DNA of 53,678 nucleotides from Polynucleobacter sp. (GTDB taxonomy: Bacteria; Pseudomonadota; Gammaproteobacteria; Burkholderiales; Burkholderiaceae), in the NCBI GenBank assembly GCA_023254115.1, contig JALQYK010000003.1, forward strand, positions 1 to 53,678, read 5' to 3'. The notes below the pieces were generated by a model that was given only the letters and a program-made list of their open reading frames with translations, searched no databases and was not told the origin of the DNA. Both the position numbers and the translations under genes were made by a program. This document shows positions 1,762 through 14,416 of this stretch, in pieces. Each line of letters opens with the position of its first letter. Within the stretch, counting starts at the first letter, position 1.

Positions 1762-2328
1762 ATGTCACAAGCTAGAGTTTTAAATCCACAAGAACTACGC
1801 AGAGTTTTAGATCATGTTGCTACACGCAGGCATAGCGCACGTAATCGCGCTATGTTACTACTGACGCACTACGCGGGTATGCGAGTAGGTGAAGTTGCTG
1901 CCCTACGCATAAACGACGTTTTAAACAGCGACAACACAATTAAGGATGAAGTACGCTTGCTACCCGAGCAAACTAAGGGTAAGCATGCCCGTACCGTTTA
2001 TTTAAATGAACGCATGCGTAAAGAGATTGGCCAGTATCTGCGTGTATTACGCATTAGAGATGCCAGTAAACCTTTGTTTTATACACAGAAGCAAGCTGGG
2101 TTCTCAGCCAACTCTCTAGCCCAATACTTCTTTTACCTATATCGCAATGTGGGATTAGATGGAGCCAGCAGCCATAGCGGCAGACGAAGCTTTTTAACTG
2201 GACTAGCCAATAAAGGTACGGCGATACATATATTGAAGAGTCTAGCTGGACATAGAAACATCAGCACTACGGCTAGCTATCTATACTCGAGCCCGACTCA
2301 ACTAAAAGCGGCTGTTGAGTTGGTGTGA
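1762..2328 (+). CDS. Small tyrosine recombinase (catalytic domain only, 188 aa)
   Basis: GMRVGE (R), TKGK (K), SHSGRR (HxxR), LAGH, TASY (Y); RBS GGGAG upstream. Confidence 0.92.
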   Translation: MSQARVLNPQELRRVLDHVATRRHSARNRAMLLLTHYAGMRVGEVAALRINDVLNSDNTIKDEVRLLPEQTKGKHARTVYLNERMRKEIGQYLRVLRIRDASKPLFYTQKQAGFSANSLAQYFFYLYRNVGLDGASSHSGRRSFLTGLANKGTAIHILKSLAGHRNISTTASYLYSSPTQLKAAVELV

Positions 2329-4740: not shown

Positions 4741-6015
4741 TCAGGCCAATTGCTCAGCAGCCATAGTAGGCGTTAGTTTGGAATAGTGCCGCTCAATCAT
4801 AGCGGCACTATTTCCCATTTGTTTAGCTAGTGTATGAATGTCGGTCTTATTCTCTAATAACTCTAACGTGGCATAAGTGTGCCGCAATGAATACAAGGTT
4901 CGCATTTGTCCATCTTGGCTCAATCCCAAGCCCGTATCTCTCATTAATCTTTTAAATGCTCCGTCAATCCTTGCTGGCTGGTGGCCATCAGCAAATACAA
5001 AGATTCGCTGGGGCACACGTGACTCAAACAATCTGTCAAACGAAATATCTTTAACGGCAAACTGTCTACTATGTAATCGCTTAAGGGCGTCAATAGCCTT
5101 ATGTTTAGCAATTAACCAACGACCGCCTGTTTTGCCACTCACCCATATACGCAAATACTTCTTATCCCCTTGTGTGTGCCACTCAATATTGTTCCAACAG
5201 ATATTCAATGCTTCAGTGCCATGCCGCATGCCTGTGTAAAACAAAATCTCCACATAGTCCCTTAACAATGGGCGGGTTAATTGCTCTATCTCCAATCTCC
5301 CATGATTAATCCAATCTTTCATGTACCCCAACAAATAATCCATCTCTTCTCGGCTAAATGCTGGGCGAGTTTTGCCTTTGTGCCCTCGTGTTGTTAGTTT
5401 TGGGATTGCCACCCTCTCACTAATCCAACCTTTATTCACTGCTGTCTGCTGTAGCTTTGTCCAAGCGCTAGAAAAGTTCATTAGAGTGCTGGCTTTTGGC
5501 ACTAGGCGCATTTGTCTATTTCGCCAAATTTCAAACTCATGAACGTCTGTGTAAGTTATTTCCTCTAGTCGTTTGTCCTGAAAATAAGGCAGAAAGTATT
5601 TTTCAATACAAGTGATGTAACTAAGGTAAACCACCTTACCAATTCCTTCATCCAAATCACGTCGCATTTCGTAGAGTGTGGCGTGCGCTATTTCTGTAAA
5701 CGTGGGTGCTTTTTGCGCAAGCCCTAGACGCTGGCGAAATCTGGCTTCATCGTATAGGTCGCAGGCAACTCGGACAGCATGTTCAATTGATGCTTGCTTG
5801 GTCGATATGCGTTCCCACGTTCCGTTTTGTCGTTTAAAACGACATTGCCAGAGAGGGCTATTTGGTCTGCGGAAGATAACAACTTCACCATCGCGCAGAT
5901 ATAACTCTGCAGGCTCTGCGTATCTAAGTTGGCTAAGTGTTGTGGGTTGGTGAAACTGAGGTGATGAGGGTAGAACTTCTAAGTTTGTAAGTTTGGTGAC
6001 TACGCCTTTAGGCAT
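4741..6015 (-). CDS. Phage-integrase family tyrosine recombinase (424 aa) with N-terminal arm-binding-like region
   Basis: GMRHGTE (R), SGKTG (K), YSLRHTY, QMGNS, IERHY (Y); N-terminal WQCRFK...RIST beta-sheet motif. Confidence 0.92.
   Translation of the reverse strand: MPKGVVTKLTNLEVLPSSPQFHQPTTLSQLRYAEPAELYLRDGEVVIFRRPNSPLWQCRFKRQNGTWERISTKQASIEHAVRVACDLYDEARFRQRLGLAQKAPTFTEIAHATLYEMRRDLDEGIGKVVYLSYITCIEKYFLPYFQDKRLEEITYTDVHEFEIWRNRQMRLVPKASTLMNFSSAWTKLQQTAVNKGWISERVAIPKLTTRGHKGKTRPAFSREEMDYLLGYMKDWINHGRLEIEQLTRPLLRDYVEILFYTGMRHGTEALNICWNNIEWHTQGDKKYLRIWVSGKTGGRWLIAKHKAIDALKRLHSRQFAVKDISFDRLFESRVPQRIFVFADGHQPARIDGAFKRLMRDTGLGLSQDGQMRTLYSLRHTYATLELLENKTDIHTLAKQMGNSAAMIERHYSKLTPTMAAEQLA
5828..5844. 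repeat. Island 17-bp palindrome copy 4 (inside integrase)
   Basis: TGTCGTTTAAAACGACA; 23-bp identity GTTTTGTCGTTTAAAACGACATT with 4711-4733. Confidence 0.92.
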
Positions 6016-7784: not shown

Positions 7785-7978
7785 GGTTCTAGTGCATTAA
7801 AAAGTCACTCAAAACCAATCGTATTTGTCACTACAGCTATTGTGGTATGAAAAAACTTGATTTATATAGTGAATGGATGCTTCAATTGATATATCTTTAG
7901 TAGGAACATTAGAATATATCCCTATAATTTCAATTGGTTAGCGCAAACCATTTAACAAACACTCAACAGAAATCGCTC

Positions 7979-9862
7979 ATGATCCCAAATACCAATCTCA
8001 AGACCATTAGTGCAGTCGCATTATCTCTATTGATGGTTAGCACAAATGCGGTGTCACAAAATTTTTCCGGTTTAATCTTTTTTGGTGATAGCAATACCGA
8101 TAATGGTCGGTATCGTTACATACCACAGTACACAACTGGTTCAAGCGCTGGCGTATTAGCAACTACTGGGGTGTACACCACACCGGGCGGTTCGATGTGG
8201 TCAGAGTATTTGGGCGCACGTTATGGAATTGGGGTTACAACCACAGCGGCGCCTGGGGGTGGAAATAATTATTCTGCAGGTAATGCCCATGTATCTTTAT
8301 CAGGCAACAGCACAATTGGCGAAAATGCATGGTCATCTGCTCAGCAAATTACATCGTATTTAAATTCCGTTGGAGGTAGGGCGAATCCAAATACGCTTTA
8401 CACACTCTACATTGGAACAAATGATCTAAAAACACCAGCGTCAGGCTTATCAGGAACACCCAACATCGTCGATCCACAAAACATAAGTGGCTTGAATAGC
8501 TTGGCTAACGATGTAATTAGTCAGGCCAATCAGCTATCAAATGCTGGTGCCAGATATTTGCTCGTTCCAAATATTGCTTCTACCACCAAGACTCAGGCCG
8601 CCGCAACTGCGGCCAATTTTCCATGGAGCCAAACTTGGGCAGACTCGCTGGCTTACTATAACAATGCTGTATGGACTGGTATAGCTTCGCAAGGCATTAA
8701 CTTCATTCCGGCAGACTTTGCTTCGGCTGGTGATTATATTTTATTAAATCCCGCTCGATTTGGTATAACAGTTACTAGTGTTAGTACTCCGGCATGTGGA
8801 GCCGTAGCGGCAATTAATTGCACGACAGCAAATCTGGTTAGCCCAAATGCAATGAATACCTACTTCTTTGCAGACACTACTGGACACGCAACATCTGCGG
8901 TTCAAAAAATTCAAGCAGACTATGTGATTGGGCTTTTAACTGCTCCTGGCCAAGTTTCCATGCTAGCCAATCAAGCCTCTTTGGGTCAAATTACCAGCAA
9001 TGGCTCTTATCTTGAGCAAATTAATTATAGTTTTCGCGCAAGGGCTCCAAAGACGCTGGGAACTTGGGTATTAGGCTCAACGCAACAAATTAATTTAAGT
9101 GGAACCCAAGTTAGCACAAGTAGCACTCCTTATAGCGGTACAGCGGGACTTGATTACCAAGTAAGCTCCAATTGGTTGCTGGGCGGCTTTGTTGGATATG
9201 GACAATCAATGGTTAACTACAACTCCACCGGGAACTTCACTCAATCAGGAAGCACTCTAGGACTTTATGCTGGCTATCAACGAAATCAAATTTGGTTTAA
9301 CTCATTGGTGTCTTACAACGCCTTAACAAATAATGTAAATCGAATAACTCCTATTGGTATCACTAGCTTTTCAAATGCCTCCAATGTGAATGGATCAAAT
9401 ACATCGGTAGCTATTCAGACGGGCTATAACTTTAATTACCAACGACTTAACCATGGGCCCATCCTTGGTTACTCTTATGTGAATACAAACATTAATGGGT
9501 TTACTGAATCAGGAAACTTTAATAGCCTTGGGTTTGGTAGCCAACAAATTAACGCTTCAATTGGTCAAATTGGCTATCAAGCCCAACTCAAGATTGGAAA
9601 CTGGCTGCCCAACATTAAGGCAATTTATAACTCACAATTTGGAAATGCCGACCGTAACATTACAACAACCTTAACTTCTGTATCTGCCCCAAGCTATACC
9701 CTTCCGGCGCTGTCTTATGGAACAAGCTGGACTAATTTAAGTGCAGGAATTGGATATCAAATTGATCCAAAAACGATTATTCGAGGCAACTTTACCCAGC
9801 AAGTGGGTTGGCAAAATCTAAATGCCTATAGCGCCACAATTAGTATAGGTGCCTATTTTTAA
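7979..9862 (+). CDS. GDSL esterase/lipase autotransporter (EstA-like); ORF open from 7934
   Basis: Signal peptide, FFGDSNTDNG block I, IGTND block III, FFADTTGH block V, C-terminal beta-barrel ending in F. Confidence 0.9.
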   Translation: MIPNTNLKTISAVALSLLMVSTNAVSQNFSGLIFFGDSNTDNGRYRYIPQYTTGSSAGVLATTGVYTTPGGSMWSEYLGARYGIGVTTTAAPGGGNNYSAGNAHVSLSGNSTIGENAWSSAQQITSYLNSVGGRANPNTLYTLYIGTNDLKTPASGLSGTPNIVDPQNISGLNSLANDVISQANQLSNAGARYLLVPNIASTTKTQAAATAANFPWSQTWADSLAYYNNAVWTGIASQGINFIPADFASAGDYILLNPARFGITVTSVSTPACGAVAAINCTTANLVSPNAMNTYFFADTTGHATSAVQKIQADYVIGLLTAPGQVSMLANQASLGQITSNGSYLEQINYSFRARAPKTLGTWVLGSTQQINLSGTQVSTSSTPYSGTAGLDYQVSSNWLLGGFVGYGQSMVNYNSTGNFTQSGSTLGLYAGYQRNQIWFNSLVSYNALTNNVNRITPIGITSFSNASNVNGSNTSVAIQTGYNFNYQRLNHGPILGYSYVNTNINGFTESGNFNSLGFGSQQINASIGQIGYQAQLKIGNWLPNIKAIYNSQFGNADRNITTTLTSVSAPSYTLPALSYGTSWTNLSAGIGYQIDPKTIIRGNFTQQVGWQNLNAYSATISIGAYF

Positions 9863-9901
9863 ACGTCGTTGTTGCCTGAACTATGAGTATGATGTCTGAA
9901 T

Positions 9902-10087: not shown

Positions 10088-10112
10088 AAAATAGCCCAAC
10101 TCGTGGGCTATT
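10088..10112 (-). terminator. Rho-independent terminator after tRNA 3' copy A
   Basis: Minus strand AATAGCCCA-CGAGT-TGGGCTATT followed by TTT. Confidence 0.75.
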
Positions 10113-10120
10113 GAGATTCT

Positions 10121-10174
10121 TGGTGGCCCGGGGCGGAATCGACCGGCCCCGAGGATGTCTGACTCTATTTCTAG
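10121..10174 (-). repeat. att-like site A: tRNA-Phe 3' 22 nt plus conserved arm
   Basis: TGGTGGCCCGGGGCGGAATCGA (10121-10142) identical to 14341-14362, then N9-AGGATGTCTGACTCTATTTCTAG. Confidence 0.93.
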
Positions 10175-10176
10175 AC

Positions 10177-10193
10177 TGTCGTTTTAAACGACA
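10177..10193. repeat. Island 17-bp palindrome copy 7
   Basis: Exact TGTCGTTTTAAACGACA between autotransporter stop (10194) and att arm A. Confidence 0.92.
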
Positions 10194-12542
10194 CTACAAA
10201 CCAATGGTATAGGTTGCAAGCACTGTGGTAGTTGATACCGCTTGGAATGGTTCCTGACGATAGATGCCGGTTACACCAATGCGTTGGTTCTTGAGAATGT
10301 CATAGTAACCACCAACCGTAGCAGTAGGTCTGGTTTTGACGGGATTGGGATTGAAGTTCACTGGGGTTAAGCCAGTGATGCCAGTGGCGCTGTAGGTGCC
10401 GTTGCTGGTATTGGTATCGGTTTCCACTCCGGCACTAGCAAACAAGGTAGTCTTTGGAATGCCGCGATAGCTTGCTCCTACACCAGCTAATGCGGTGGTA
10501 GCGTTGGTGTTCAGTGCTGAGTAGGTTAAGGGTGCAGTAACGGCAGAACTGGTTGCTTCGGTATAGCCACCCATATTGTTTTGGGTGTAGCGCACTCCAG
10601 CGTATGGGGATACAACCACATCAGGCAGTACCGCAAAGCCATACTTAGCGACAATTTGTGCGCCCTGACTAATCAGTTGTGAGCTGCCACTACCTGCTTC
10701 ACTTAAGCCTACGATTTGGCGAGTGATCGTGGTGTTTTTTTGTCCATAGGCGGCTGACACTTTGACTTCCGCTCCCACACCATCGGGACGTTGGCTCCAG
10801 ACGCCAAAGAGACCAATCATGGGGGTGCTATTACCTAACTGAACCGTACCAGGACCGCTCACGGATAAATTCTGATCCACCCAGGCGCCAATGCGGCTAT
10901 TGTTCTTATTTAAACGATAGGAGGCAATCAATAAGCCACTGGTGTTATTAATCCCTTCGGTCTGAACAGTCGTATTGCGGCCACCCGCACTCACGCAAAT
11001 GCCATGCTTATCAAATAAGGGACAGTCATAAGTAAAGCCATTGACCATCACGGAGTTTTGTAAGGTGTAGGTGCCTTGCAAGACTGAGGCGGTATTTGCG
11101 AGGGATTGTTGAGTGTCGGTTGTCGATGCGCCGGTGACAATTAAATCCCAAATATCTGACGACGAATTAGTGAGACTCCAACGGAAGCCATAGAATGTAC
11201 CCGAAGTGTTGGAAAGGTTGCTGGAGGTAAATCCTGAAAGTACAGAGCTGTAAGTACCCTTTTGGACACTTGAGCTAGCATAAATACCGAAAGTCGTGAT
11301 ACCACTTATTGCTGATCCTGCTAACTTTCCAAACTGCGTCGAACTATTAATAATAATGTTGTAGCTTGATGGAAGTGTTCCTGTGTAAGTTAATGCAACA
11401 CCTCCATTAAGGTTGTTTAGAGTGGAAATTCCTCCAGAGTTAGAAATCATATTTCCGAATGGAGCAAGAATTTGACCTATGTTCGTAATAACACCTAAAT
11501 TTCCTGAGTTAAATAATCCCGTACTGAATGAGGAAGAGATCTGACCGTTGTTCAGAAGCGTATCTATAGTTCCAGCATTATTAATGCCAGTCCCTCCGCC
11601 CCCAATACTTCCGCCAGTAGCATTTAGCAGTGTTGTGATGGTTGCGCCAAAATTATTATCTAAGCCGGAAGTGAGTCCTGATATAACTCCAGTATTGTTT
11701 AAGGCAGAGATGTTTCCTGAATTAGTTATTCCGTACTGACCCATTCCAACACTTCTAATAGTTCCCGAATTGGTAAGGTCAATAATGGTTCCAGAATTGT
11801 AGAGACCATTGCCTCCAGCGCCTTGGATAGTCCCGCTGTTTGTCATATTTGTAATGACGCCAATATTAGAAATCGCTGCTAATCCACCTGAGATAGTTCC
11901 GGTGCTTGAGTTATCCAGACTAATAATGGTGCCGCCACTACTATTAACAATTCCATTTCCATTATCACTAGCTCCTATGGTTCCAGTATTACTGAGAATC
12001 GAAATTGTGCTACCAGTATGATTGAGTATTCCAATACTGCCATCTCCCACACTAATAGAGCCAGAGTTGTTTAGTGTTCCAATGGTGCCTGTATCGTTAA
12101 AAATTCCAGTTCCACCATTTCCTGACAGGATAGTTCCAAGATTATTTAATGTGGTAATAGTGCTTGAAAAATTAGCTATTCCAGTTCCCGCATCACCTGC
12201 TGAGATAGTGCGAGTAATCGAGTTATTTAGAGTAGTAATCGTGCCACCAATAAGATTTACAATTCCTGACCAACCAACCACATAGATATTTCCGGTATTT
12301 GAAATGCGTAGACCGCTATAACCGCCATTTGTTACCGCATCGGAAGCTAAGGGGCTGCCTGACTGTCCAATAGATCCACTAGCAGTAATTTCCAAACATT
12401 CATTATTAGAAGTAAATGAAAATGGAGTATTCGTATTAGATGAGATTGATGTACATACTTGAGCAATAGTATTTGACGAAGCGCCTACTGCAAGCCCTCC
12501 TAAAAGGAGTATCTGAAAGATATGTTGAAACCTACTTTTCAT
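10194..12542 (-). CDS. Autotransporter adhesin-like protein (beta-helical passenger + beta-barrel)
   Basis: Signal peptide; many N(S/T)G(T/S)I and ITTLNN repeats; C-terminal barrel with SPYAGVRY. Confidence 0.88.
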   Translation of the reverse strand: MKSRFQHIFQILLLGGLAVGASSNTIAQVCTSISSNTNTPFSFTSNNECLEITASGSIGQSGSPLASDAVTNGGYSGLRISNTGNIYVVGWSGIVNLIGGTITTLNNSITRTISAGDAGTGIANFSSTITTLNNLGTILSGNGGTGIFNDTGTIGTLNNSGSISVGDGSIGILNHTGSTISILSNTGTIGASDNGNGIVNSSGGTIISLDNSSTGTISGGLAAISNIGVITNMTNSGTIQGAGGNGLYNSGTIIDLTNSGTIRSVGMGQYGITNSGNISALNNTGVISGLTSGLDNNFGATITTLLNATGGSIGGGGTGINNAGTIDTLLNNGQISSSFSTGLFNSGNLGVITNIGQILAPFGNMISNSGGISTLNNLNGGVALTYTGTLPSSYNIIINSSTQFGKLAGSAISGITTFGIYASSSVQKGTYSSVLSGFTSSNLSNTSGTFYGFRWSLTNSSSDIWDLIVTGASTTDTQQSLANTASVLQGTYTLQNSVMVNGFTYDCPLFDKHGICVSAGGRNTTVQTEGINNTSGLLIASYRLNKNNSRIGAWVDQNLSVSGPGTVQLGNSTPMIGLFGVWSQRPDGVGAEVKVSAAYGQKNTTITRQIVGLSEAGSGSSQLISQGAQIVAKYGFAVLPDVVVSPYAGVRYTQNNMGGYTEATSSAVTAPLTYSALNTNATTALAGVGASYRGIPKTTLFASAGVETDTNTSNGTYSATGITGLTPVNFNPNPVKTRPTATVGGYYDILKNQRIGVTGIYRQEPFQAVSTTTVLATYTIGL

Positions 12543-12721
12543 ACTGGTCTATATGGTTAAAGCACTAATTATTGCAGAGAACAATCTTTCACCACAAGCA
12601 AATAATTAGGAATCACTAGCTATACATCCTCGCACCGTCTCTGATATCAATTATGGCAACACTATATGACAACTAGCGCAACCCCAGTTAATTCTCACTA
12701 TGTTTACTTTACGCCAAAAAC

Positions 12722-12804
12722 AAAACCACCCGAAGGTGGTTTATGGATTCTTGGTGGACCGGGGCGGAATCGACCAGGACCTAGGATGCCTTACTCTTTT
12801 CTAG
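12722..12804 (-). repeat. att-like site B: terminator + tRNA-Phe 3' 22 nt (1 mismatch) + conserved arm
   Basis: AAAACCACCCGAAGGTGGTTT hairpin, core 12752-12773, N9-AGGATGCCTTACTCTTTTCTAG. Confidence 0.93.
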
Positions 12805-12850
12805 CCAGAACTAAATTGCCGGGCTCCTAAATTCATAAGACGATTCAACC

Positions 12851-13033
12851 CTAACTACTGGGAAATAGATAGCCGACTATTAAAAAAAATAAACTCATTG
12901 CCACAATTCCCTTAGTAATATTGGCAGCCATAAAGATTTTTTTGCTTGTCTCTTTTTGTTCCTGGATCTCCATCATTCTGATGAAAATATAAAAGCCAAT
13001 CATTAAACCAATCCAAAGCATGTCTATCCCCAA
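12851..13033 (-). CDS. Small two-TM membrane protein (start possibly ATG 13021)
   Basis: Two hydrophobic segments separated by a charged loop. Confidence 0.6.
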   Translation of the reverse strand: MGIDMLWIGLMIGFYIFIRMMEIQEQKETSKKIFMAANITKGIVAMSLFFLIVGYLFPSS

Positions 13034-13038
13034 TAAAT

Positions 13039-13176
13039 TTACTTAATAAGTGAATAAAGTCCAATAATAGAAAGTATAGGCGCTATGTTTATAAATAGAA
13101 AATATGCGATTACGCCATACACCAAGTACTTTACTAGCCTAAACATTTCATTATCGTTGTTTCCGCCACCACTCAT
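13039..13176 (-). CDS. Small membrane protein (45 aa)
   Basis: Not in ORF track; MSGGGNNDNEMFRLVKYLVYGVIAYFLFINIAPILSIIGLYSLIK; GAAAGG RBS; tandem with downstream small gene. Confidence 0.55.
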   Translation of the reverse strand: MSGGGNNDNEMFRLVKYLVYGVIAYFLFINIAPILSIIGLYSLIK

Positions 13177-13409
13177 TTTGAAAACCTTTCAATTTCGAGA
13201 CTAAAAGTAAGCGCTTCAAAAATATTTTCAACTACCACCAAGGAACACAAAACCAACTATAGTTAATTCTAATACTGTGATGGGCCTGGTGGCTTTTGAT
13301 GTATTGATGGGATCGGAGGCATTGATGATTGGCAACCATAGGTAATGTTTAAAAAAAATCAATTAGAAACCTAAATAGTTGAACAGCGTAGACTGCCCGA
13401 CCAAATAAA

Positions 13410-13486
13410 AAAACCACCCGAAGGTGGTTTATGGATTCTTGGTGGCCCGGGGCGGAATCGACCAGGGCTTAGGATGTCTGACTCTA
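13410..13486 (-). repeat. att-like site C: terminator + tRNA-Phe 3' 22 nt + conserved arm
   Basis: AAAACCACCCGAAGGTGGTTT hairpin, core 13440-13461, N9-AGGATGTCTGACTCTA, ending 1 nt from the OMP stop. Confidence 0.93.
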
Positions 13487-13487
13487 A

Positions 13488-14225
13488 TTAAAACTTATAG
13501 CCAATGCCAATGAGAAGTTGATAGGCACTAATAGAGGGATTGGTTGTCATTGTCCAAGTACTGGCACCGCCATAAGGTTGCTCATCCACATTTGAAACTA
13601 AGGATGGCTTGCTATAGCTCATGTAGTTGCCCTCAGCAAAACCATAAAAACCACCCTTTATAATTTGCTTATAGCCAAGGCCAAGAATATATCCACCAAC
13701 CGTAGATGATGGGCTGGTCCAATTACGAGCCTCGGGAGTTCCATCGCTGGCCGTCGGAGGATTGTAAGTTGCCTTAATAGAGCTGTAGCCTGCCTTAAGA
13801 TAAACCAACTTATCCTTATCTATCTCATAACCTGGTGTTATAAAAATATTAAATCGATTAGAGACTTTTAATGACTGTCCGGTAAATGTTGTATCTATCA
13901 AAGGAAAATTTGAGCTATATGTTGAGCTTCTTTGGGAGGCCAATGAATAGTCAAGGCCAATACCCAAGATAAAATTTGGCGCCACGCTAAAGTTATAACC
14001 AAGTCCAACAATGAGGGGTGCTCCACCAAAATTTTGTGTGGAGGCATTATATGTATCAGGATAAATTCGTGCCGCCTCTTTAAAGACCGCATCCAAATTG
14101 CTCGCGGAGTTATTTTCATAGCCCGTAGCAATTTGCCCATAAAAACCTTGAAACGCACTTTGAGCGAAGATGCTTGGTGAGAAAAAAAACAAGCCCAATA
14201 CCAACAGCTTTAAAAATTTATTCAT
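13488..14225 (-). CDS. Outer membrane beta-barrel protein (Omp25/OmpA-TM-like)
   Basis: Signal peptide, FQGFYG N-terminus, alternating strands, C-terminal GIGYKF. Confidence 0.88.
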   Translation of the reverse strand: MNKFLKLLVLGLFFFSPSIFAQSAFQGFYGQIATGYENNSASNLDAVFKEAARIYPDTYNASTQNFGGAPLIVGLGYNFSVAPNFILGIGLDYSLASQRSSTYSSNFPLIDTTFTGQSLKVSNRFNIFITPGYEIDKDKLVYLKAGYSSIKATYNPPTASDGTPEARNWTSPSSTVGGYILGLGYKQIIKGGFYGFAEGNYMSYSKPSLVSNVDEQPYGGASTWTMTTNPSISAYQLLIGIGYKF

Positions 14226-14307: not shown

Positions 14308-14331
14308 AAAAAACCACCCGAAGGTAGTTTT
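14308..14331 (-). terminator. Terminator downstream of tRNA-Phe
   Basis: Minus strand AAAACTACC-TTCG-GGTGGTTTTTT. Confidence 0.8.
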
Positions 14332-14340
14332 AGTATTTCT

Positions 14341-14416
14341 TGGTGGCCCGGGGCGGAATCGAACCACCGACACAAGGATTTTCAATCCTCTGCTCTACCG
14401 ACTGAGCTACCAGGCC
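14341..14416 (-). tRNA. tRNA-Phe (GAA)
   Basis: 76 nt GGCCTGGTAGCTCAGTCGGTAGAGCAGAGGATTGAAAATCCTTGTGTCGGTGGTTCGATTCCGCCCCGGGCCACCA; full cloverleaf, encoded CCA. Confidence 0.98.

Follow-up and report, generated by a model that had tools for sequence, protein, structure and literature searches.

A conserved tRNA-Phe-like site at the ends of small, integrase-less gene cassettes stacked behind tRNA-Phe in Polynucleobacter

Tandem units stacked behind an RNA gene make up the ssrA islands of Dehalococcoides, in which, according to the accessible text of their description, units carry a 3′ repeat of ~20 bp that starts in the T loop, a conserved 15-bp motif lies directly upstream of the repeat, and many units have no integration module (PMC3146451). 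Recurring tRNA-end repeats and variable cargo also characterize additive tRNA islands of streamlined freshwater bacteria, namely, fGI-2 of “Ca. Methylopumilus” (PMC10872708) and the islands of P. asymbioticus (10.1101/2022.03.25.485477), again within the accessible portions of those reports. The tycheposons of Prochlorococcus are described in the accessible part of their preprint as transient elements with tRNA-targeting tyrosine integrases that stack behind the tRNA and leave partial tRNAs (10.1101/2020.12.28.424599). Here we describe the array behind the tRNA-Phe gene of a Polynucleobacter sp. (GenBank assembly GCA_023254115.1, contig JALQYK010000003.1, positions 1 to 53,678; this whole 53,678-nt stretch is the window) and the corresponding arrays of its relatives. 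Short units in these arrays, here called cassettes, end in a short site that consists, on the tRNA strand, of an arm, a spacer, and a core matching the tRNA 3′ end, and larger units end in a long site that begins at the anticodon loop. The array is an additive tRNA island, or putative cis-mobilisable element, that is integron-like in outcome and is not an integron. The arm forms the cassette-facing end of a recurring junction, and this junction looks like the anticodon-to-CCA half of tRNA-Phe in a worn and shortened form.

As in other additive islands, the units are tandem and bounded by tRNA 3′ repeats, and the short ones have no recombinase of their own. Dehalococcoides already combines a conserved flank with integrase-less units, and a conserved flank is therefore not new in kind. 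The Dehalococcoides motif, however, does not align with its RNA gene, and the serine recombinase module DsiB is common there, as far as the accessible text goes (PMC3146451), whereas the Polynucleobacter motif mirrors the anticodon stem and the single-gene units of ~1 kb include none with a recombinase; no large serine recombinase of the DsiB/Ccr type was found at the tRNA-proximal edge of a short unit. For the “Ca. Methylopumilus” and P. asymbioticus islands, the accessible text reports no conserved flank, stop-codon junction, or cassette anatomy. The long units fit the accessible account of tycheposons, which encode their own integrase, as do 9 of the 52 long units; the short units differ in having an altered shared site and neither integrase nor replication genes. 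Relative to the tRNA subsites A and J, as defined in the accessible parts of two sources (PMC4383910; 10.1101/2023.11.06.565760), long sites correspond to A with its 7-bp loop overlap and short sites carry a J-type identity block, but a single short site joins an A-type stem mimic to the J-type block. The “damage” recorded by Islander is, in the accessible text, a deletion near the discriminator (PMC4383910), which is not the case here. New here are the mimicry of the anticodon stem, units of one-gene size, and junctions at stop codons. A literature search, whose coverage left out the main paper on Polynucleobacter islands, returned no description of this site.

The likeness to integrons lies in single-gene, co-oriented, and reshuffled cassettes, in a site placed directly past the stop codon, and in toxin-antitoxin cargo. 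Unlike integrons, the arrays described here have no adjacent intI and no attC-type hairpin or covariation, their site is apparently tRNA derived, and each cassette has its own leader and terminator; neither an intI beside an attI nor a folded attC hairpin was found.

For the survey, ~19 kb behind tRNA-Phe was taken from 100 relatives, chosen with a preference for long contigs out of 133 in which the tRNA gene had been located. With the window included, the 101 arrays hold 300 short and 52 long sites, each identified solely by its tRNA core, and 81 arrays have at least one short site; a profile search added 62 decayed sites, identical in orientation throughout. Clustering by 200 nt of upstream cargo, with sites chosen on the core alone, gives 143 independent cassette ends. 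The motif ATCCT (at most one mismatch) stands 8 to 11 nt before the core in 133 of the 143, compared with 11 of 143 in an interval shifted by 45 nt. On the tRNA strand, the short-site consensus is (T)AGRRT-YAGRC-ATCCT-MGGCCC-TGG(T)-TCGATT...CCA-terminator. Information amounts to 1.4 to 1.75 bits in ATCCT, where anchoring inflates it, and to 0.4 to 0.95 bit in the next ten positions, and it is at most 0.2 bit beyond the left edge of the arm.

A first-pass annotation of the window had described the arm as a non-tRNA element, a view refuted by a match to the tRNA anticodon arm and by in-register hybrids. A weight matrix of the arm, built with the window sites excluded, scores the tRNA anticodon arm at 12.6 bits, which only 33 of 3,232,672 genome positions reach, and this counterpart stands in the tRNA gene at a 12-nt spacing from the core. 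In register with the short site, tRNA-Phe reads AGGAT-TGAAA-ATCCT-TGTGTCGG-TGGT-TCGATT. By this alignment, the arm is homologous to the anticodon stem of the tRNA as well as to the element side of the attachment (att) sites that lie at the anticodon loop in the same arrays. These long sites are classical anticodon-loop att sites in which identity with the tRNA begins at the 7-nt loop; left of the loop, their element side reads AGAG, AGGA, CGGG, or AGGATR, resembling the left half of the arm, and elements with the tRNA 5′ half have CATCCT or ACTCCT to the right of it. Both kinds of sites are also preceded by a GTCTAG-like motif (54 of the 300 short sites and 40 of the 52 long ones, versus 2 and 0 in controls). 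The hybrids comprise five sites with an arm-type loop and the tRNA right half, two short-family cargos that end in TTGAAAA followed by the tRNA right half, and one reciprocal case with a long-type arm and a short right half (n = 1); of the seven whose right half is of the tRNA type, four lie immediately after the tRNA.

The geometry of the short site (AGRR / T-YAGRC-A / TCCT) is that of an imperfect inverted repeat about a 7-bp overlap, as in the anticodon loop and as in core sites of the lambda type. Arm sites of the lambda type are absent from attB, whereas this motif has its counterpart within the tRNA gene, i.e., in attB. Homology to the anticodon stem therefore makes the motif more like a core-type (crossover-flanking) site than like an arm-type site for the N-terminal domain of an integrase.

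The spacer had been taken to be fixed at 9 bp and variable in sequence, and neither description survives the larger sample. Its length is 9 nt in 85 of the 143 ends, 10 nt in 48, 11 nt in 6, 12 nt in 3, and 8 nt in 1, and the spacer itself is conserved, with the tRNA-strand consensus MGGCCCTGG (0.72 to 0.93 per position past the first). An extra T that matches the tRNA is retained in 68 of the 300 sites. In ortholog pairs from 27 families with an identity of 0.45 at 4-fold sites, identity is 0.79 in ATCCT and 0.88 in the core, 0.64 in the spacer, and 0.53 in both the loop and the 14 nt upstream. The arm is slower to diverge than synonymous sites.

In the window, the order on the tRNA strand is cargo gene, stop, arm, spacer, core, terminator, and next cargo, with the arm 5′ of each core. 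The features, in window coordinates, are as follows.
14341..14416 (-), tRNA-Phe(GAA), the single copy found in the assembly and the head of the array
14310..14331 (-), terminator-like hairpin behind tRNA-Phe, part of the start of the next cassette
13488..14225 (-), cargo C, 245 amino acids (aa), stop 2 nt from arm C
13471..13485 (-), arm C, AGGATGTCTGACTCT, degenerate equivalent of the tRNA anticodon stem-loop
13462..13470 (-), spacer C, 9 nt, standing in for the 12-nt variable/T-stem stretch of the tRNA
13440..13461 (-), core C, the last 22 nt of tRNA-Phe, from T loop to CCA
13411..13430 (-), terminator-like hairpin past core C
12851..13033 (-), cargo B, candidate 60-aa open reading frame (ORF), stop 53 nt from arm B
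12783..12797 (-), arm B, AGGATGCCTTACTCT
12774..12782 (-), spacer B, 9 nt
12752..12773 (-), core B, one mismatch versus tRNA-Phe
12723..12742 (-), terminator-like hairpin past core B
10194..12542 (-), cargo A, 782-aa autotransporter (PF03797), stop abutting the 17-bp palindrome
10177..10193, 17-bp palindrome TGTCGTTTTAAACGACA, an island-specific motif 10 nt from arm A
10152..10166 (-), arm A, AGGATGTCTGACTCT, as in arm C
10143..10151 (-), spacer A, 9 nt
10121..10142 (-), core A
10088..10112 (-), second hairpin type with T tract past core A, terminator-like by eye and missed by the hairpin scan
9888..9901 (+), supposed degenerate copy of the motif, not a site (chance-level score, no core)
4741..6015 (-), 424-aa tyrosine integrase (PF00589), candidate trans-acting enzyme
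1762..2328 (+), 188-aa small tyrosine recombinase, companion of the 424-aa integrase

The three arms and their 9-nt spacers thus lie where the first-pass annotation had placed them, and its view of the motif as a constrained and searchable signature of a cassette family is supported; the motif is also cassette-borne. Several finer points need correction. The TTTCTAG reported past arms A and B is present in both, but at offsets that differ by 1 nt. Cargo stops do lie close to the arms, but that of cargo C is 2 nt away rather than 1; that of cargo A does abut the palindrome, which is itself 10 nt from the arm. The letters of the proposed degenerate copy at 9888-9901 are present, but its score of 6.5 bits is reached by 1,237 of 3,232,672 positions and is therefore attributable to chance, and the genome profile search did not report it.

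Each of the three window cores is followed by a hairpin and a T tract. Cargo C had no match in Pfam or NCBIfam, and its signal-like start and terminal Phe suggest that it is likely an outer-membrane beta-barrel; the candidate ORF of cargo B had no family match. In four environmental assemblies, contig depth over cassette B (12800-13400) was below that of cassette A or nil, a weak hint of presence/absence within populations. Other copies of the palindrome begin at 2329, 3265, 4715, 5828, 9902, and 9948, in addition to that at 10177. In arrays, it occurs 49 times per 100 kb when up to three mismatches are allowed, compared with 0.19 times elsewhere in the genome. The integrase and adjacent ORFs contain some of the copies, and many lie 110 nt past a core. 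Between site A and the integrase element, a GDSL-esterase-type autotransporter on the opposite strand is followed by two palindromes (7934-9862).

The motif as originally given occurs exactly three times in the 1.62-Mb genome, always in the window. A fourth site, with two mismatches and a 9-nt spacer, is found on contig C26 of the same genome, which also has one longer repeat that begins at the anticodon loop. The stretch 1970-2700 of that contig, where the long anticodon-loop site is followed by the short site, is likely the continuation of the array past the left end of the window. At the other tRNAs of this genome, the arm was not found, and only repeats of the anticodon-loop type were seen.

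Among 151 genomes searched with up to two mismatches, the motif of the first-pass annotation matched 34, including 33 of 90 congeners, with 0/60 matches for other genera and none for a reversed control. As a signature, its exact form finds 22 of the 300 sites, and the form with two mismatches finds 48. The site was absent from all 56 searched genomes of one other family. An exact relaxed pattern found 109 loci in the genome collection, 101 of them titled Polynucleobacter or unspecific beta-proteobacteria; the remaining 8 are in metagenome bins titled as other taxa, which may reflect wrong labels, misbinning, or transfer. Viral contigs gave no match to one exact pattern. Six loci (L377-L381, L406) are secondary arrays far from the tRNA gene, headed by a decayed, near full-length copy of tRNA-Phe that is followed by short-site cassettes.

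A cassette consists of the tRNA 3′ end with its terminator and about one gene, up to the arm. Short units have a median length of 1,085 bp, and 141 of the 300 hold a single ORF. Among 137 independent cassettes, 116 have a co-oriented last ORF, whose stop is no more than 60 nt from the core in 100 of them. Measured against the arm, 62 of 101 independent cargo stops lie inside it or within 3 nt, 26 as a TAG that overlaps its first AG. Each of the 32 families with at least three members is found at two or more ranks and behind two or more neighbours, completing an integron-like arrangement of co-oriented single-gene cassettes with a site past the stop and a shuffled order. The commonest cargo (L031-L130) comprises BrnT/BrnA (in 20 and 18 units), further bacterial toxin-antitoxin pairs, lipid A acyltransferase, bicarbonate transporter, porins, patatin, molybdo-oxidoreductase, and ion channels.

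The arm travels with the upstream cargo. In a linkage test on 205 and 72 nonindependent pairs, minor arm alleles were shared by partners with the same upstream cargo at 0.46 to 0.88 and by those with the same downstream cargo at 0.06 to 0.44 (expected, 0.10 to 0.38). Terminator alleles show the reverse linkage and track the downstream cargo, and the spacer and first T-loop bases lean weakly to the upstream cargo. Linkage switches inside the core, and the usual exchange therefore falls within the tRNA-identical block; most neighbour exchanges lie inside 22 to 23 bp identical to the tRNA and leave the single tRNA intact. Truncation of the cargo at capture was considered and rejected: cargo homologs that lack a site usually terminate at the same residue. 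Many of these homologs retain decayed arm remnants, so that native homologs are not separable from former cassettes. One HU paralog, 75% identical to the chromosomal copy, matches it to 6 nt past the stop, where the arm begins; this single case is anecdotal.

No tyrosine or large serine recombinase was found in the 300 short units with 20 recombinase queries, and Pfam searches of 150 of the 348 cargo families revealed only transposases of the insertion sequence (IS) type among short units. The integrase of the nine long units that have one belongs to the 424-aa family of the window, and eight of them also carry the 188-aa partner. This family is present somewhere in 91 of 135 genomes; a PDB search with it gave no match, and the recombinases of the window fall far short of the cut-off score for integron integrases. 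In seven loci, divergent integrases lie upstream of the tRNA, and all are of the 424-aa family. They were considered as an intI and rejected: three have a displaced 5′ tRNA half, and the copies are therefore inserted elements that restore it. Insertion by this family at the anticodon loop also occurs in the reverse orientation, in which case the element has a tRNA 5′ half and a 5′ fragment stays behind upstream (L368, L371, and L372; also L367, L369, L370, and L373). A large serine recombinase was likewise rejected as the cognate enzyme, with PF07508 present in 20 of 135 genomes and absent from that of the window. Those near an array (2 of 135 genomes) are on foreign high-GC islands, which start immediately after a CCA, either that of tRNA-Phe or that of a short site (L115/L397 and L398), indicating that short sites can be targets for other elements too.

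The best reading of these sequences is that of an att-derived, core-type site that would be used in trans and would mark integrase-less cassettes. We assign a probability of roughly 0.5 to the proposal that the short site descends from an anticodon-loop att site and that the corresponding integrase binds CATCCT in trans. The ancestor would be the att site used by those integrase elements of these arrays that insert at the anticodon loop, and a transiently present integrase would still bind the CATCCT half-site. Such binding may help to join new genes at the left edge of the arm and may help to pair the short site with the tRNA gene or with other sites. The altered 7-bp middle (T-YAGRC-A versus TTGAAAA) would block a full crossover with the anticodon loop of the tRNA. 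Finished cassettes would probably be spread by homologous recombination of the host, and sites would decay once the gene is fixed.

Several observations weigh against this proposal. The main exchange point is the tRNA-identical core and not the arm loop, so that crossover does not usually take place in the arm. In only 6 of 219 cases do adjacent sites have an identical 7-nt middle, and a characterised tyrosine integrase requires identical overlaps, according to the accessible part of its description (10.1101/2023.11.06.565760). The left half-site is degenerate and frequently falls within the last codons of the cargo, and the eight hybrids could have arisen by microhomology. Gene conversion could mimic constraint, arm and core decay jointly (Spearman 0.36), and 297 of 644 homolog matches of cargo genes (partly redundant) have no detectable site past the stop, which speaks against strong lasting selection. 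Furthermore, 44 of 135 genomes have no match to the 424-aa integrase, some of them with many sites. With regard to excised circles, no terminal repeat was found in 127 metagenome loci (flanks examined for 80), and the candidate circle joints seen in four environmental assemblies were disregarded because their sides were short or letters had been inserted.

A bolder extension of the trans-acting integrase proposal, tentative and rather unlikely in our estimate, casts the site as a gene-capture tag. A transient tyrosine integrase would join the anticodon-stem mimic to arbitrary genes at their stop codons, amounting to an integron equivalent made from a tRNA decoy; the altered 7-bp middle would spare the sole tRNA-Phe, and the tRNA-identical tail would let one-gene cassettes stack and shuffle.

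Alternatively, the arm may not be read by any protein and may be an old att scar kept alike by gene conversion, with cassettes entering by homologous or homology-facilitated recombination of the host between long upstream homology and the 25- to 50-bp repeat. Recombination in the genus is high (r/m, the ratio of recombination to mutation, is 7.4), and loss of mismatch repair is discussed in the accessible text of the same source (PMC5644125). The four of seven hybrids directly behind the tRNA are as a double crossover predicts, arm and core decay jointly, 62 more sites are decayed, and many arrays are in genomes without the integrase. We nevertheless consider this explanation unlikely: ATCCT (0.79) is kept better than the intervening spacer (0.64), which is the wrong order for conversion tracts; a left boundary this sharp in 143 unrelated cargo ends calls for a process by which new junctions are made at one place; and a purely homology-driven site should equal the tRNA exactly.

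The motif might instead be a genuine arm or accessory site that belongs to the attP side of another recombinase, one of the T-loop or junction type that is rare or helper-borne, in which case the spacer would be a core half-site and crossover would take place in the T loop or acceptor stem. This would agree with exchange in the core, with the arm on the cassette side, and with tRNA identity that begins in the T loop, and the Dehalococcoides ssrA islands offer a precedent in the accessible text, with a 15-bp non-RNA motif before a 20-bp repeat, insertion at the T loop, and many units without an integration module (PMC3146451). It is made quite unlikely by the lack of any such recombinase in the 300 short units, by the restriction of large serine recombinases near the array to foreign high-GC islands in 2 of 135 genomes, by the presence of the motif in the tRNA gene itself at a 12-nt spacing, and by a spacing of either 9 or 10 nt; in phage mv4, moreover, the accessible text shows that a supposed arm site beside the overlap is a degenerate core site (10.1101/2023.11.06.565760).

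A role as RNA or folded single strand, either as a tRNA-like 3′ untranslated region that processes or stabilises cargo mRNA or as an attC-like hairpin, would suit the mostly co-oriented cargo (last ORF in sense in 116 of 137 independent cassettes) and the short stems possible in arm and spacer but is very improbable given the lack of covariation (arm stem broken in 180 of 715 cells, with 10 compensatory changes versus 7.7 in shuffles; spacer/core stem, 5 versus 2.9), folding z-scores of −2.1 to +0.6, and the homolog matches without a site past the stop. Retroposition primed by tRNA was also considered and dropped: its polarity is wrong, and cassettes keep leaders of 78 to 295 nt.

To our knowledge, the way in which single genes come to be packaged as mobile cassettes has yet to be explained, even in integrons. 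In the arrays described here, one defined 25-bp site has been joined to at least 143 unrelated cargo ends, and a candidate integrase is present in the same island. The host is a culturable and very abundant lake bacterium; together, these features make capture and shuffling directly testable. The corrected consensus delimits accessory genes where integrase-based island finders would miss the units; according to the accessible text, Islander needs an integrase and at least 2 kb (PMC4383910), and the median unit here is 1.1 kb. If the gene-capture proposal were true, these sites would make visible the cassette-making junction of an integron-equivalent system.

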